A stretch of DNA of 64,000 nt, taken from positions 22,018 to 86,017 of the IMG/VR virus record IMGVR_UViG_3300042400_000613; one strand, 5' to 3'. Shown one piece after another: positions 56,993 through 64,000 of this stretch (the first letter of the stretch is position 1; each line of letters starts with the position of its first letter). Made by a program: the position numbers and the translations under genes. The notes under the pieces are model-generated. The model worked only from the letters and a program-made list of their open reading frames with translations. It was not told the DNA's origin and searched no databases. The DNA is from a virus.

Positions 56993-57913
56993 TTAATTAT
57001 TTAACCTCCGAGGAAAATATAATTTTTTAAATTCCCAATATTCTTTCATGTAATCAGCCCTCATATTATAATCAGGACTTGTATGATACCCGGATTTCAT
57101 CATACATTTACATATATTCCGGTAAATTTGAATCGGCGGGAGACTATAATCAGCCTTCCTGCACTTATCATATCTAGGAGCATTGAATACACTAGCCCAT
57201 ACTTTTATTCCCTCTTCAGTATTATTTGCGGAAAAGAACTTTTGTTTCATATTTCTCTTCCTTCCCTTTACATACTCTATTGTCATTAAGTTAACCCAAT
57301 CATATTTACCTATCTTCTTTATACCACCAGGATTACCGTACAACCGCCATAGTTCTGTCTCAACGCCAACAGATGTAGCTTCCAATATAAAGTAAGCATA
57401 TATAAAAGATACCGGGAAATCAGTCATGTGATGCACAGCATAGAAGAGAGAATCATAGTTATACAATAAATTCAATCTTCTTAGTGTAATAAGACTTAAG
57501 TTGTCTATATTCCTAAATCCCTGCTTACGTAGATATTCGGCAGCTTCTTTATGACTGTACTTCTTAAAATCGTGACCATGAGACCTAGAGGCGAATGCTG
57601 TGAAAGGAATGGCAAAGGGAACGGACTTGCTAGGCTTTGCAGCAGTTCCGTTCCTTTGTATATTCACTTTATTCTCTATGTACACCGTATCTTTTACAAT
57701 GGTATAGATTGATTTCTCTATGTACACAGTGTCATAAACGTATTGGACAGCATACTCAATAGAACCTCCGGAGAATATTTCTTGCTTATCGTAATCAGAT
57801 GGAGTATTTCTACTAGTAATAGCGCCCAAGAAAAACGCAGTGACTATTGAAAGCCCAATGTAGATAGGCAATCTTTTATTCTCCCGTATATAGGTTTCTA
57901 CTCTTTCTCCCAT
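56993..57913 (-). CDS. GH73/glucosaminidase-like peptidoglycan hydrolase with an N-terminal membrane anchor (candidate endolysin)
   Basis: FILEA, NPGGIK, TIEY and GYHTSPDY (YATD-like), plus an N-terminal TM segment. Confidence 0.75.
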   Translation of the reverse strand: MGERVETYIRENKRLPIYIGLSIVTAFFLGAITSRNTPSDYDKQEIFSGGSIEYAVQYVYDTVYIEKSIYTIVKDTVYIENKVNIQRNGTAAKPSKSVPFAIPFTAFASRSHGHDFKKYSHKEAAEYLRKQGFRNIDNLSLITLRRLNLLYNYDSLFYAVHHMTDFPVSFIYAYFILEATSVGVETELWRLYGNPGGIKKIGKYDWVNLMTIEYVKGRKRNMKQKFFSANNTEEGIKVWASVFNAPRYDKCRKADYSLPPIQIYRNICKCMMKSGYHTSPDYNMRADYMKEYWEFKKLYFPRRLNN

Positions 57914-59800: not shown

Positions 59801-60341
59801 TCTCGTATAAAGCCTTCAAGTCATCCATGTTTATATTTTCCTTCGGCCGGACCTCGACAAGTGTACCGGTTTGGCTCACAATCTCGACGTAAGGCAGGAT
59901 ATCGTGGTAGTGGGTACGAGAAGTAAAGTCATGTATTAAGATGGATTGTACGCCCTTTATGACCGCTTTACAGGCACAGGCTAATCTGAACCTACCATCA
60001 ACTAGTACAACATCAATATCGTCGTACTTATCAATAACAGCAGAATACGTAGGAAAGTTGTCTTTTTTATTGTTGTTAGTTGGTCTCCCCATATTCCCAG
60101 CGTTAATGTCAATATGGTGGAACGTTATATCTGGGTGGATCTTAACTGCCTCGTATTGCTTCACCTCCTCTATCCACATTTTTTGAGACTCCACTGATAC
60201 TACCTTCCCGGCCCCATTTTTGCACGCCCGGAAAGTACTCCCACCTGCACCCCACTCAAAGTAAAACACAACACCCCGAACAGCATTCACAAACATTTCT
60301 TCCTCATCCTTTTTCATTAGTATTCCCGGCTCTTTTCTCAT
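59778..60341 (-). CDS. SAM-dependent methyltransferase-like protein
   Basis: YFEWGAGGST, SVES, VLVDGRFRLAC and IHDF. Confidence 0.8.
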   Translation of the reverse strand: MRKEPGILMKKDEEEMFVNAVRGVVFYFEWGAGGSTFRACKNGAGKVVSVESQKMWIEEVKQYEAVKIHPDITFHHIDINAGNMGRPTNNNKKDNFPTYSAVIDKYDDIDVVLVDGRFRLACACKAVIKGVQSILIHDFTSRTHYHDILPYVEIVSQTGTLVEVRPKENINMDDLKALYESAKYDYR

Positions 60342-60344
60342 AAA

Positions 60345-60720
60345 TTCTTTTTACATGCTTATTAATCTCTTTCATATATAAGTACATTCAGAGAGCATCC
60401 TTATCATCATGTCTTTTATATTTCATATTCATTTTACATATTAGAAGCATTTTACTTTACACATTAGAAGAATTTCATTTTATACATTTTCTCTGCATCC
60501 ACTTATTATTCTTTTTTCATTTAATATTTCATGCTTTCTTAAATGTTATTTTTCATCCTTTTTCATTTAATATTTCATGTTATTTTAATTTTATACTTTA
60601 ATATTTCATGTTATTTTAAATCTTATTTTTCATTTAGTAGCAATGCATATTTCATTCTTATTTCATTTTATATTTCATCCTATGTTCATGTTATTTTGAG
60701 TGCATTTTTTTTGTCCGCGG
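60345..60720. repeat. Non-coding T-rich low-complexity tract with recurrent (TT)CAT(G) units
   Basis: TTTTCATTTAATATTTCATG and ATATTTCATGTTATTTT recur; the tract ends at CCGCGG (60715). Confidence 0.75.
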
Positions 60721-60984
60721 TTTTTTAAATATTGATTCCGGAGAAGTGCCAAAACTGTATAGGGAAAAGTGTAAAAGCCTGATAATTAATAGGTTGCTTA
60801 GTGAATTACTTCAAATGGTATATAAATAACTAGTAGGGAAAAAAATGGACCTCGATATGAACGTGGTTCTAACCGGCGATCCCTTTTCTGGACTTTTTGT
60901 GTCTTATCGAAAATAATGGAATGGCTGAAACCCGCATGGTTATTAGGTTTCAGATCTTTTGTCAATTTTTTTGAAAAATAGTGC

Positions 60985-61015
60985 TTGACAGTCAATATCT
61001 GAAAATCTATCTTTG
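60985..61015 (+). promoter_or_regulatory. Early promoter, Bacteroidota sigma type
   Basis: TTG(ACA) followed by TATCTTTG at 61008-61015. Confidence 0.7.
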
Positions 61016-61181
61016 TGGTGTACTTAATCGGTTACGACGTACGATGCACCTACAAACGTGTAGGTGTTTATTTTGAAACGCGGGAAAAATTTTCAACCCT
61101 TATATATGTGAGGAACAATAAACGGGTTGAAAAAAAATTAAAAAAAAATTCGCAAAGTGTTTTTTTTACGAAAATGTTTTT

Positions 61182-61189
61182 TATCTTTG
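61182..61189 (+). promoter_or_regulatory. Early promoter -7 element
   Basis: TATCTTTG about 40 nt before the 41-aa ORF. Confidence 0.7.
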
Positions 61190-61230
61190 CATCAACGAAT
61201 TAATTATTTAACCACTTAATCACTTTTATC

Positions 61231-61356
61231 ATGAAAAAATCAGATTTAATCATTGTTGCAGTTGGTATCGTAGTAATTGCGGCAATTTTATGCGGCTTAT
61301 TTTACGCCGCAATTATTCTTAATAACGGAAACGCCGGTTTTAACGGCGGTTTCTAA
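61231..61356 (+). CDS. 41-aa membrane/secreted peptide (paralogue A), absent from the ORF track
   Basis: MKKSDLIIVAVGIVVIAAILCGLFYAAIILNNGNAGFNGGF; homologue at 63379. Confidence 0.8.
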   Translation: MKKSDLIIVAVGIVVIAAILCGLFYAAIILNNGNAGFNGGF

Positions 61357-61429
61357 AACAAAAAAAGGGCTACATTAAATTGTAGCCCTACCTTAAAAAA
61401 TCATTTTTAACCTTTTTAAATTTTACGTT

Positions 61430-61687
61430 ATGAATTTCAAAATTAATTTTATTTACTCTTTGATTTATGCCAACATTGGCAAAAATGGTATATCTCGCGA
61501 GAATGCCTCAAGAATGTTAACTATTTTAAATCGAGCAAATCGTTTTACGGCAAATCGTTTACTTGAGGATTTAATCCGCGAAAATGCGGAACACTATGTA
61601 ACCCAATTTTGTTGGGACAAAAGTAACCCAATAGTGGTATCTTATGAGGAATATTTCTTTGACCTTTTAGTCAAAGAAATGAAATAA
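61430..61687 (+). CDS. Early hypothetical protein
   Basis: Preceded by a hairpin (61366-61389) and a TTTTTAAATTTTA leader. Confidence 0.7.
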   Translation: MNFKINFIYSLIYANIGKNGISRENASRMLTILNRANRFTANRLLEDLIRENAEHYVTQFCWDKSNPIVVSYEEYFFDLLVKEMK

Positions 61688-61773
61688 AAAAAGAGGGGCT
61701 TCGCCTGAAGCCCCTCACTAAAAAAAATCGGGCAAAAAATTATTAACTTTTTTTAAATTTTAAATTTACAGTC

Positions 61774-62076
61774 ATGTATCAATTATCATTTAACTTGCTT
61801 AATGCAGGTAGTGTCACAGTTTCTTTTGACGTCAACTTTGGCGGAATACAAGAGCTTTATGTTGGCTTAAAGCCAACATTTGACAAATTTTATTTTGCCT
61901 CATTGAGCCAAAAAATACAGCTTGCTTCAATTAAAGCAAATGATAGCTTTAATTTCAAATGGGATAGGATATCCCAAAGCGAATTAAGAATTGAGATTCT
62001 TAAGCAAGTTTTAGATATTAAGACAAGAGAGGACGGCAATTACTATCAAACGTCCAAATTTAATTGGATACCTTAA
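61774..62076 (+). CDS. Early hypothetical protein
   Basis: Preceded by a hairpin (61693-61716) and a similar leader. Confidence 0.7.
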   Translation: MYQLSFNLLNAGSVTVSFDVNFGGIQELYVGLKPTFDKFYFASLSQKIQLASIKANDSFNFKWDRISQSELRIEILKQVLDIKTREDGNYYQTSKFNWIP

Positions 62077-62145
62077 ACAGAAAGCCCCGCGGTAAAACGC
62101 GGGGCAATTTTTAAATAAATTTTTTAATCACTTAAATTTTATACT

Positions 62146-62391
62146 ATGATTACAATTGAGTTTAAAAGAAATGGTTCTTTCTTTGTGGCTTATGTCCAAA
62201 GAGAAACCGAAAAGGCATACCAATGCGAGGTTCTCTTAGTAGATATTAATTGGGGTGACGCGGTAAAGCTGAACAAATTAATTTGGCTCCCTAAGTCAGC
62301 GGTTCAAGGTAACAAGTTACAAGCCTGGCTTGTAAGAAAGTTAGACCTAAGCGGTACATGGGAGGGTGTGCCACCTACCTACCCAAACTAA
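62146..62391 (+). CDS. Early hypothetical protein (RETEKA...WLPKS type)
   Basis: Preceded by a hairpin (62084-62105); ETEKA and WLPKS motifs are common in small phage proteins. Confidence 0.7.
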   Translation: MITIEFKRNGSFFVAYVQRETEKAYQCEVLLVDINWGDAVKLNKLIWLPKSAVQGNKLQAWLVRKLDLSGTWEGVPPTYPN

Positions 62392-62393
62392 AC

Positions 62394-62430
62394 AAAAGCC
62401 CCGGCCGGTGACGGTTCGGGGTTTTTTTTT
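62394..62430 (+). terminator. Rho-independent terminator closing the first early cassette
   Basis: GCCCCGGCCG-GTGA-CGGTTCGGGG followed by T9. Confidence 0.8.
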
Positions 62431-62489
62431 GCCTGGTTCTAACCTCATTAGATCCGGGCTTCGCCCGACGACGTAGGGGGCACCCAACG

Positions 62490-63098
62490 ACACACACATA
62501 CAATAGACAGGCATACATTAGATAGTGCATTAGAGAGACCATTAGACAGGCATACAATAGACAGGACAATATCGCGGGGCTTAACTACATCAACACATTA
62601 CATACATTAGATACACATGATACAATAGATGATAGATAGATGATAGATGAATAGGATATAATAAAACATATAATGAATTGCCTGATAAGATATGTACCAT
62701 GTATATTAGATGTATATTAGATGTTATATAGATTAAATGATATACCTTATGTTGTATAGATGTTATATAGATTAAATGATGTTATATTAGATGATAGGAT
62801 AGATGTATATTAGATGTATATTTTTATTTAATGTTATATAGATGGATGTTAGGATATGTAATATAAATGTTGTATATTAGAGGCATGATAGATAGATGTA
62901 TTATTAGATAATGTATATAGAATGAATAATAAGAATGTATGATAGATGTTATATAAGATGATATGGTATAATGTAGTTTAGATGTTATGATAGATGTATA
63001 GTGGATGTTATATAATGTAAGTAATGTATAATTGAATGTTTATAAAAGATGTATTATATTTCTGGATTGATATTATATGTACATGATAGTTCCCCGCG
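62490..63098. repeat. Non-coding ACAT/ATGT degenerate tandem tract, mostly bracketed by CGCGGGG and CCCCGCG
   Basis: CATACAATAGACAGG occurs twice (62497, 62551). ATGTATATTAG units have a 10-11 bp period. A 24-bp repeat lies at 62718/62757. CGCGGGG is at 62573 and CCCCGCG at 63092. Confidence 0.85.
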
Positions 63099-63099
63099 G

Positions 63100-63222
63100 A
63101 AAAACAAACAGAACAGCACAATAGAACGGAACCGACGGACAGACAGTACCGACGGACAGGCCCAACGAATCGACGGATAGATGGACGGACGGATAGAACG
63201 AAAAGACGGACCGAACGAATTT
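63100..63222 (+). repeat. GACGGA/AACGAA-rich degenerate repeat tract
   Basis: ACCGACGGACAG occurs twice, with many GACGGA units. Confidence 0.75.
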
Positions 63223-63231
63223 TGCTAGGGA

Positions 63232-63252
63232 TGACTAACAGAAAGCCCGAGT
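63232..63252 (+). repeat. 21-bp direct repeat (second copy at 63980-64000)
   Basis: TGACTAACAGAAAGCCCGAGT is identical in both copies. Confidence 0.9.
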
Positions 63253-63328
63253 AAATTTTTTGGGGGCAAAATATGGCGTTTTTAGCAAAATATATGTACC
63301 AATATTAGGAATATAGCATAACTGGTTG

Positions 63329-63336
63329 TATATTTG
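63329..63336 (+). promoter_or_regulatory. Early promoter -7 element
   Basis: TATATTTG about 40 nt before the second 41-aa ORF. Confidence 0.7.
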
Positions 63337-63378
63337 TAGGGCAGTCGCAAGGAAGCGAAGGCGCTAAAAAACAAAGTT

Positions 63379-63504
63379 ATGAAACGTTCTGATTATGTTA
63401 TTATCATTTTAGGTATTTTTTTCTTTGCATGTATGTTGTACCTTTGCACATACATTGCGCTAAATTTCAACAATGGTAACGCCGGTTTACACGGCGGTTA
63501 CTAA
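63379..63504 (+). CDS. 41-aa membrane/secreted peptide (paralogue B), absent from the ORF track
   Basis: MKRSDYVIIILGIFFFACMLYLCTYIALNFNNGNAGLHGGY. Confidence 0.8.
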   Translation: MKRSDYVIIILGIFFFACMLYLCTYIALNFNNGNAGLHGGY

Positions 63505-63507
63505 ACA

Positions 63508-63537
63508 AAGGTGGGGCGCGCATACCAACAACGCGTA
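63508..63537 (+). repeat. 30-bp intergenic repeat with pseudoknot potential (second copy at 63733-63762)
   Basis: AAGGTGGG(G/A)CGCGCATACCAACAACGCGTA follows two successive stop codons. Confidence 0.85.
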
Positions 63538-63575
63538 AATTTATTAATCATTAACCTTTTTAAATTTTTATTACC

Positions 63576-63728
63576 ATGTTGTATCAAGTAAAATTTTATA
63601 AGTATTTGAAGTGCGCTAAAAACGCAATCGCGAGGTATCCTAACAAATACCGGAATACAATTCATGTAACGGAGTTCGATAACGGTACATACTACAGGAT
63701 AACGGAGGTCGAAGGAACGCCTCTATAA
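63576..63728 (+). CDS. 50-aa early hypothetical protein
   Basis: [50 protein letters not shown]; its leader matches the one at 61430. Confidence 0.65.
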
Positions 63729-63788
63729 AACGAAGGTGGGACGCGCATACCAACAACGCGTACTTTTTAAACCACAAAAAATAAAAAA

Positions 63789-63893
63789 ATGAAAAAAGTA
63801 GATGATGAATTAGGCAATATTATAGTTATTGCAATTATAATCATAAGCCTATCTTGTCTTTTCATCTTTGCCGGTATGGCTTGCGGATGTTAG
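63789..63893 (+). CDS. 34-aa single-pass membrane peptide
   Basis: MKKVDDELGNIIVIAIIIISLSCLFIFAGMACGC, with an A-rich leader. Confidence 0.6.
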   Translation: MKKVDDELGNIIVIAIIIISLSCLFIFAGMACGC

Positions 63894-64000
63894 ACGGAAG
63901 CCTCCGGACGGAAACGGACGGAGGCTCTCTCTTATTAAATCGAACGTAGCTAGAGACGGCTAGCGTATTTCAATCGGGCTGACTAACAGAAAGCCCGAGT

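Follow-up and report, generated by a model that had tools for sequence, protein, structure and literature searches.

We analyzed a 64,000-nt stretch of virus DNA (hereafter the window), the last 64 kb of the 86,017-nt record IMGVR_UViG_3300042400_000613, which is estimated to be about half complete, and found in its final part two genes for a small membrane protein of a new family. Comparisons among related loci showed a conserved membrane-type microprotein gene behind a conserved promoter-like module, a selected hairpin on the sense strand and a surrounding region shuffled as cassettes. We interpret the whole as an early inner-membrane microprotein whose 3′ coding end doubles as a cis-acting mRNA hairpin, a reading that we hold to be slightly better than an even bet; any single target for the peptide is much less probable than that. 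The two genes are the following:

61231..61356, plus strand: peptide gene A, 41 residues, tail NNGNAGFNGGF
63379..63504, plus strand: peptide gene B, 41 residues, tail NNGNAGLHGGY

Both open reading frames (ORFs) consist of 41 codons followed by TAA. A preliminary description of the stretch had presented them as twins sharing MK(K/R)SD and a conserved tail, and this observation was confirmed: the peptides align without gaps at 19 of 41 identical residues (BLASTP E 8e-12), with MK(K/R)SD and NNGNAG..GG(F/Y) in common, and a search for the tail motif in six frames of the whole record returned these two ORFs only. Support was likewise found for their being conserved, translated, paralogous and located behind promoter-like modules, and partial support for the interpretation that had been placed on them.

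Further copies, which the preliminary description had suggested looking for, were present in viral and metagenome contigs and in protein collections, while tblastn against 50,697 GenBank phage records gave no match to the peptide. The family is known only from aquatic phage and metagenome contigs. Of the pattern matches, one locus in viral contigs (L003, out of 43) and six in metagenome contigs (L005–L010, out of 293) were confirmed. Among proteins, a word-indexed search gave eight clusters (P0001–P0008) and an exhaustive profile search of 1.84 billion proteins gave 11 representatives at E<=1e-3; the window's exact peptide (cluster P0001) is a called product on 20 contigs in the protein collection. 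No true relative was found in the bacterial and archaeal genomes of 185,579 species, where the sole match (L004, in a metagenome-assembled genome of Eubacterium) covers residues 1–20, differs thereafter and has no tail, and was rejected as a chance match. Three proteins that looked like fused or longer forms turned out to be N-terminally overextended ORF calls through the promoter region, ending in the same 41 residues, and the longer forms P0003, P0007, P0016 and P0017 had the same explanation.

The family has at least three tail types, NNGNAGFNGGF (A), NNGNAGLHGGY (B) and [ST]N[ST][IV]A[SQA]NIGVIM (C), the last giving 86 pattern matches and no confirmed locus in viral contigs. Variant tails include NAANAG[LF]HGGF, NNGNGGLNGGF, ...LNGTF, ...LHFN and ...LHFTM, and P0012 is a 55-residue member with another tail. 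At threshold, the peptides had no match in Pfam, PHROGs, NCBIfam or PADLOC. Below it, the match to phrog_35395 (unknown function, E 4.7e-4) spans hydrophobic residues 9–28 alone, and the best ESM Atlas score (0.82, below the meaningful level) belongs to generic small membrane proteins. Each twin has closer orthologues elsewhere than the other twin; by these comparisons, they are paralogues of long standing (types A and B) within a family of single-pass membrane microproteins of 38–41 residues that is specific to phages. The retention of two such paralogues in one genome suggests different specificities.

Several patterns indicate that the ORFs are almost certainly translated. A frame of exactly 41 codons, with the same start and stop, is kept in all eight DNA copies despite identities of 46–88%, and conserved residues K2, S4, I8, G12, A27, N31, N34 and G36 show synonymous variation. 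Nonsynonymous divergence (dN) was below synonymous divergence (dS) in 28 of 28 pairs (NG86), with dN/dS values of 0.072/0.503, 0.064/0.670 and 0.099/0.814 in close pairs (a ratio of about 0.10–0.14). Conservation at the DNA or RNA level alone, with untranslated ORFs, had been named in the preliminary description as the outcome that would overturn it; the low dN and the synonymous changes at conserved residues are the reverse of that outcome. The transmembrane segment has a dN/dS of ~0.06–0.2 in close pairs, its G12, Y25 and A27 are nearly invariant, and its replacements are conservative, one hydrophobic residue for another; tails of the same type have a dN of 0 and a dS of up to 0.97. Contigs of four sequencing runs held no variant letters inside either ORF.

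The layout of the peptide is as constant as its frame: a short basic N-terminus (MK[KR]SD) leads into ~25 hydrophobic residues, and the last ~11 residues form a tail that is rich in Asn and Gly and free of charge. All 20 members scored have an N-terminal charge of +2/–1, one hydrophobic span (mean hydropathy 2.40–3.23 over a 21-residue window) and no charge after position 6, and the 19 further family proteins (P0002–P0020) share the layout, P0012 excepted. Together, the constant frame, dN below dS and the preserved arrangement of charge and hydrophobicity are the hallmark of a translated membrane peptide that crosses the bilayer once. The positive-inside rule predicts a cytoplasmic N-terminus and a periplasmic tail. 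An uncharged hydrophobic span of ~25 residues is long for a signal peptide, and the segment looks like a membrane anchor instead.

A hairpin within the tail codons

The preliminary description had also remarked that the tail segment can form a hairpin. This hairpin, H1, is real and, at 10 bp in gene A, longer than had been stated:

61327..61354, plus strand: hairpin H1 of gene A, codons 33–41; 10 bp with a bulged G and a 7-nt loop, ending on the U of the stop codon
63474..63503, plus strand: hairpin H1 of gene B; 11 bp with a bulged G

In both genes, the stem thus ends on the first base or bases of the stop codon. The predicted stability (RNAfold) is –13.0 kcal/mol for gene A and –14.2 kcal/mol for gene B, with z scores of –3.29 and –4.08 against dinucleotide shuffles. 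Across seven distinct sequences, 98.6% of the cells of the stem alignment are paired, compared with 19–57% when the 3′ partner is slid by one to three columns. One pair is compensatory: GGA (Gly33) faces TTC (Phe41) in type A and GGT faces TAC (Tyr41) in type B, giving AU in three sequences and UA in four, and the F/Y difference between the tails is therefore half of a compensatory change. At two further pairs, C has changed to U and still pairs with G as a wobble. H1 is part of the minimum free energy fold of seven of the nine full transcripts.

Encoding the same residues does not require such a structure. Among 3,000 synonymous recodings of each gene, the observed stability was matched by none for either of the window's loci (W1 and W2), by two for L006 and by one for L010. 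The stem uses codons that are rare in the phage (GCC is 15% of Ala and GGC 10% of Gly codons), and the codons of A35, G39 and G40 lack synonymous variation in eight of eight copies, while other conserved Gly and Ala codons of the ORF vary. When the last 12 codons were tested in the same manner across genes, the twins scored z –5.45 and –4.86, and none of 49 long ORFs fell below –1.98. L010, which has the unrelated tail type C, forms a different hairpin of 11 bp in the same place (–12.8 kcal/mol, z –4.79). These comparisons show H1 to be selected beyond the demands of the peptide sequence. The plus strand folds better than the minus strand (–13.0 and –14.2 vs. –10.1 and –10.3 kcal/mol), which, with the G–U pairs, indicates that the structure matters in the sense RNA and not in the DNA or in a transcript of the other strand. 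No Rfam family matched at its gathering score, and none over the ORFs.

The hairpin changes how the twin tails should be read, and it explains much of what made them look special. The preliminary description had argued that a conserved tail beside a diverged helix implies a functional tail; that argument is undermined by the overlap of the tail codons with a selected hairpin, which makes the extra conservation of the tail at least partly a nucleic acid constraint. Within the hairpin, amino acid changes fall in the loop or at a stem pair, one of them compensated (F/Y) and one not (G33A in L005, which breaks the pair). The peptide has its own imprint where the RNA does not dictate the codons: synonymous changes occur at N31 and N32, which the stem does not include, and three different codons encode G36 in the loop. 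The tail is, on this evidence, under a double constraint, so that its conservation is unreadable as peptide function alone.

Other genes nearby also carry terminal structure. In the last-12-codon test, two neighboring small genes scored more weakly (z –2.85 and –2.56). The 85-residue ORF just 3′ of gene A ends in an in-frame 12-bp hairpin (61643–61687, –12.3 kcal/mol) matched by 0.7% of recodings, and a 100-residue ORF has a weaker one. Terminal hairpins of this sort may be a more general feature of ORFs in the early region.

Promoter-like modules in a shuffled region

Each peptide gene follows a promoter-like module and is followed by a second hairpin, H2:

61150..61192, plus strand: promoter-like module type 1, with a –7-like box TAtcTTTG at 61182–61189
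61366..61389, no strand assigned: hairpin H2 after gene A, a GC-rich intercistronic stem-loop 10 nt past the stop
63233..63340, plus strand: promoter-like module type 2, with a –7-like box TAtaTTTG at 63329–63336 and a stem-loop-containing repeat before it
63516..63536, plus strand: weak hairpin H2 after gene B, 5 bp with an 11-nt loop; this module recurs at 63728–63767

The boxes match TAnnTTTG, which we take to be the Bacteroidota-type promoter consensus. The preliminary description had placed this motif about 40 nt before each ORF, and it does end 41 nt (gene A) and 42 nt (gene B) before the ATG; its position is kept at all nine loci with a family member. The type 1 module (…TTTGCAAAG…GTTTTTAT[AC]TTTGCA) lies 36–45 nt before the ATG at seven of these (W1, L003, L005, L006, L007, L009 and L010), and its core occurs once in the 86-kb record; the other two (W2 and L008) have the type 2 module. 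Type B peptides occur behind both. Of the record's 10 small hydrophobic ORFs, the twins alone are preceded by the motif at a distance of up to 80 nt.

Downstream, every locus has the order UAA, short A-rich spacer and GC-rich H2, as do other small genes here, and H2 starts 6–13 nt past H1 and the stop in all nine. The gene that comes next varies, with seven different genes at the nine loci. Neither stop-codon readthrough nor frameshifting at H2 was borne out, as no conserved slippery site or extension could be seen by eye. H2 of gene A was scored as a terminator of the minus strand, where a T-run follows, and has no such run on the plus strand. The GC-rich hairpins at 61366–61389, 61693–61716 and 62084–62105, all after small plus-strand genes, were called minus-strand terminators (62084–62105 on both strands); their role may be to keep antisense transcription out of the early region, or they may act on the plus strand without a U-tract.

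The phage is a T4-like myovirus according to its matches in Pfam (50 ORFs scanned) and PHROGs (25 ORFs scanned). They include a major head protein, tail sheath, tape measure, UvsX-like recombinase, DnaB-like helicase, ribonucleotide reductase, DNA polymerase, T4 gp19, T4 baseplate, gp32 and PhoH. The scanned ORFs, which do not extend to the first 22 kb of the record or the missing half of the genome, included neither an integrase nor a repressor. The capsid protein is nearest to those of Microcystis phage Mel-JY01 (59.5%), Flavobacterium phage vB_FspM_immuto (54.6%) and Rhodothermus phage RM378 (36.6%), and positions 60900–64000 had no DNA match among GenBank phages. The TAnnTTTG box and the lack of a Shine–Dalgarno sequence before the ORFs would fit a Bacteroidota host.

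The genes neighboring the twins are ORFs of 34–100 residues without a family match, and their arrangement differs among relatives. L003 and L006 come from phages closely related to this one: both have its 187-residue gene and its promoter upstream, and different cassettes follow. In L006, a type B peptide takes the place of the window's type A. In population contigs, joints skip whole cassettes (62432 joined to 63217 in four of four runs, 62115 to 63894 in three of four). The segment 62433–63215 is replaced by 23–33 other letters in three of four runs, which together with the first joint makes it an indel-polymorphic block. The depth of promoter module 2 is raised in all four lake runs, ~8-fold over the plateau of run X3 and higher elsewhere, indicating a multicopy element, and in at least three of four runs contigs share its promoter and ATG and then continue with other letters, an open hydrophobic frame being kept as judged by eye. 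The stem-loop-containing repeat at 63216–63252 recurs at 63964–64000, the end of the record (84% over 37 nt; two copies only on this incomplete record), and the 5′ part of module 2 is repeated at the contig end, 63981–64000. An array of such cassettes is probably where the assembly broke off, and further copies of the peptide may lie beyond the record's end.

Promoter-early stem-loop (PeSL) cassettes were reportedly described by Arbiol in 2010 in the hyperplastic regions of T4-type phages. Their architecture is treated by Comeau and coworkers (2014; PMC4122927). Like those cassettes, the small ORFs at 61–64 kb belong to a T4-type myovirus, lack relatives and appear to be flanked by conserved stem-loop and promoter-like modules, and close relatives and population variants differ by motif-bounded swaps, replacements and indels at these modules (L003 vs. 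L006; the population joints). Unlike them, the promoter here is Bacteroidota-like rather than of sigma-70 type, and the module carries a fixed first gene, the peptide, with its in-gene hairpin. Recombination at the modules is inferred from the joints. We regard the peptides as a new family belonging to a familiar class, the early membrane microproteins of phages, here located in a PeSL-like region; what is unusual is the RNA hairpin that overlaps the coding sequence.

Possible roles of peptide and hairpin

Placement directly after a host-type promoter module in the variable region suggests early expression. On the reading that we favor, host RNA polymerase would transcribe the peptide genes early, and the peptide would enter the inner membrane posttranslationally, as a chain of 41 residues would be freed before its helix fully leaves the ribosome. 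It would then act on a host membrane or envelope component in takeover, in exclusion of other phages or in anti-defence. H1 would act in cis on the mRNA, by protecting or defining its 3′ end, as a processing or protein-binding site, or by timing the ribosome relative to H2, whose 5′ arm would be covered by a ribosome at the stop codon 6–13 nt upstream.

Superinfection exclusion or receptor blocking, proposed in the preliminary description, may be the role of the peptides. T4 Imm, a protein of 83 residues, acts in superinfection exclusion. PhiNM1 Gp11 blocks MurG and DivIC (PMC11237401). Like these two, the peptides are small phage products without an enzymatic domain that are predicted to be early and membrane-embedded; unlike them, they have 41 residues, much below T4 Imm, and they show no sequence relation to either. 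No PHROG family of known function matches the peptide, which gives it no sequence membership in described superinfection-exclusion families (T4 Imm/Sp and others), a result that says nothing on whether it acts like such proteins.

Several points weigh against the favored reading. All 24 sequencing runs containing the stretch are DNA metagenomes of lake water and none is RNA; the phage and its host are uncultured, and the peptide matched nothing in the GenBank phage records. The covariation in H1 amounts to one evolutionary event, type A vs. type B, and in a shuffle control that ignores relatedness, seven of 500 replicates reached the observed H1 score. The hairpin of L005 is weakened, with one broken pair and –8.6 kcal/mol, and 20% of recodings fold equally well; tail type C has a single DNA copy. 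The topology is predicted from simple hydropathy and charge. “Early” expression is suggested by a promoter-like 8-mer that is itself not enriched in the window (93 matches vs. 87.8 expected; 28 of 100 shuffles had at least 93). A joint of 61207 to 61720 in one of four runs (30-nt side, unknown letters between) leads from the promoter to a later cassette and appears to drop gene A, which would make the module dispensable. Finally, what the peptide acts on, and to what effect, is entirely a matter of inference.

A more specific version of the favored reading, which we consider improbable as a whole, would make promoter, 41-codon ORF and hairpin a mobile “starter module” with two coupled outputs from the same 30 nt, a periplasm-facing membrane-anchored tail and a cis RNA hairpin. 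The Asn/Gly/aromatic tail might, for example, self-associate, or bind a periplasmic protein domain and act on proteins of the host envelope; the hairpin, comparable to a nut or put site or to a stabilizer, would set the fate of the transcript with its recombined cargo genes; and peptide tail and RNA stem would coevolve, as in the F/Y switch.

The ribosome timing considered above could also be the entire function. As a leader peptide with an attenuator, translation would matter more than its product: the ribosome would melt H1 and, at the stop, cover the 5′ arm of H2, tuning the downstream cargo, and the peptide would have little or no function. The trp leader offers a precedent, since its pause hairpin spans the end of the leader peptide frame. 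The loci resemble it in having a stable hairpin over the last codons and stop of a short ORF and a second one close behind, H1 ending on the stop and H2 starting 6–13 nt later at all nine; the module of promoter, ORF and H1 is also constant while the downstream genes vary, and the hairpin is selected beyond coding need. A pure leader, however, would not need an N-terminus and hydrophobic span under purifying selection; the gene end of UAAACAAA plus hairpin is found on all small genes of the region and not on the twins alone; and unlike in the trp leader, no alternative antiterminator pairing between H1 and H2 is evident, H2 differing among loci while H1 is constant. We consider this explanation unlikely.

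We assign a similarly small probability to a membrane-damaging peptide of the type I toxin, holin or viroporin kind, whose helix would oligomerize and depolarize or permeabilize the inner membrane while H1 restrains translation or stabilizes the mRNA. The type I toxin peptides Hok, TisB, Ibs and AapA1 come from structured mRNAs, and the twins likewise are tiny peptides with a single very hydrophobic helix and a basic N-terminus on an mRNA with selected structure. Type I toxins are, however, typically chromosomal or plasmid-borne, whereas this family is phage-borne behind a strong promoter-like module and, with L004 set aside as a chance match, has no relative in the 185,579 species' genomes searched. 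Motif scans identified no antisense RNA gene and no convincing antisense promoter, the minus-strand TAnnTTTG matches at 61438–61445 and 63372–63379 being at chance density. As for holins and pinholins, the endolysin-like gene (56993–57913) is on the other strand and more than 3 kb away, and the twins lie behind host-type, not late, promoters.

The end of the type A tail, GFNGGF (61339–61356), is identical to part of the segment GFNGGFG of TDP-43, perhaps by coincidence. As reported in PMC11346406, the TDP-43 segment assembles into a steric zipper that is parallel and in register, and the shared hexapeptide makes tail self-association conceivable, by analogy, for a membrane-damaging peptide as for parallel membrane-anchored peptides in general. 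A prediction of a four-copy homo-oligomer scored 0.06 against a mark of 0.42, in a run without controls. Among the literature matches listed for the tail motifs, nothing concerned phage: NNGNAG was a methyltransferase site and GFNGGF was TDP-43.

An untranslated RNA element, in which function resides solely in the hairpin and the promoter and the open frame is there by chance, is very unlikely. It would account for the strong selection on the hairpin and the rare GCC and GGC codons, but it leaves the frame open in all eight copies, dN below dS in all 28 pairs, the synonymous changes at conserved residues well outside the hairpin, the hydrophobic-for-hydrophobic replacements and the protein layout kept in P0002–P0020 (except P0012) without a reason.

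Least credible of all is an exported signaling propeptide of the arbitrium or Phr kind, an analogy raised in the preliminary description, in which the helix would be a signal sequence and the C-terminal 5–11 residues would be released and sensed: the peptides do resemble AimP and Phr in size (~40 residues), in their basic and then hydrophobic N-terminal layout and in the conserved C-terminal end, and a subthreshold match to Phr_nterm of NCBIfam exists (E 0.12; 12.9 bits vs. a cutoff of 25), but the T4-like phage, its predicted Gram-negative host type, the anchor-length span without an obvious A-x-A site (by eye), the nonconserved downstream neighbor and a tail conservation confounded by the RNA hairpin all speak against it. 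The gene aimP adjoins that of AimR, a receptor of ~380 residues with tetratricopeptide-repeat and helix-turn-helix domains (TPR/HTH). Arbitrium serves temperate phages in deciding between lysis and lysogeny, and its mature signal is a C-terminal hexapeptide freed from a precursor whose signal peptide is cleaved. As the preliminary description had noted, no such receptor is visible here, neither it nor a lysogeny gene occurring among the ORFs scanned with Pfam and PHROGs.

The favored early membrane microprotein with an embedded hairpin bears on more than this phage. Variable regions of phages are full of tiny ORFs without relatives that annotation skips, and one such ORF is shown here, from sequence alone, to represent a conserved, translated family of membrane microproteins. 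The case also carries a methodological warning: where a micropeptide is most conserved, the cause can largely be an RNA hairpin, and equating a conserved tail with a functional one can mislead. If the reading is true, the twins are a compact natural case of overlapping protein and RNA codes. T4-like phages of freshwater Bacteroidota are an ecologically important and genetically unexplored group, and the module would offer a handle on early takeover by such phages, provided that the hairpin governs early transcripts and that the peptide acts on the envelope of these hosts.

Neighboring sequence features

Upstream of gene A, a sigma-70-like match (TTGACA-17-TATCTT, 10/12) overlaps a TAtcTTTG box at 60985–61067. 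About 30 nt past it comes a 9-bp hairpin with a T-rich tail (61046–61067) and then a second inverted repeat (61090–61133); positions 60985–61067 may give rise to a short noncoding transcript. Farther upstream, the divergent intergenic region at 60400–60750, between the minus-strand block that ends at 60341 and the small plus-strand genes, contains five direct repeats resembling TTTCATTTAATATTTCATG.

Between the twins, a subthreshold match to the Rfam family ohsC (62357–62431; 30.5 bits, gathering score 50) falls on a terminator hairpin, with each peptide gene ~1 kb away. It is followed by an AT-rich, CG-poor island of degenerate GATAGATG / TATATTAGATG repeats (62480–63230) and four 17-nt repeats similar to ACGGAxCGACGGACAG (63126–63213). 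Candidate identities for this AT-rich block are a mobile insert and an origin-like or iteron region. Beyond gene B, a third small hydrophobic ORF (63789–63893), without a family match, encodes 34 residues with a basic/acidic N-terminus, one hydrophobic span and a Cys-rich end, and a strong hairpin (63893–63932, –23.3 kcal/mol) follows it.

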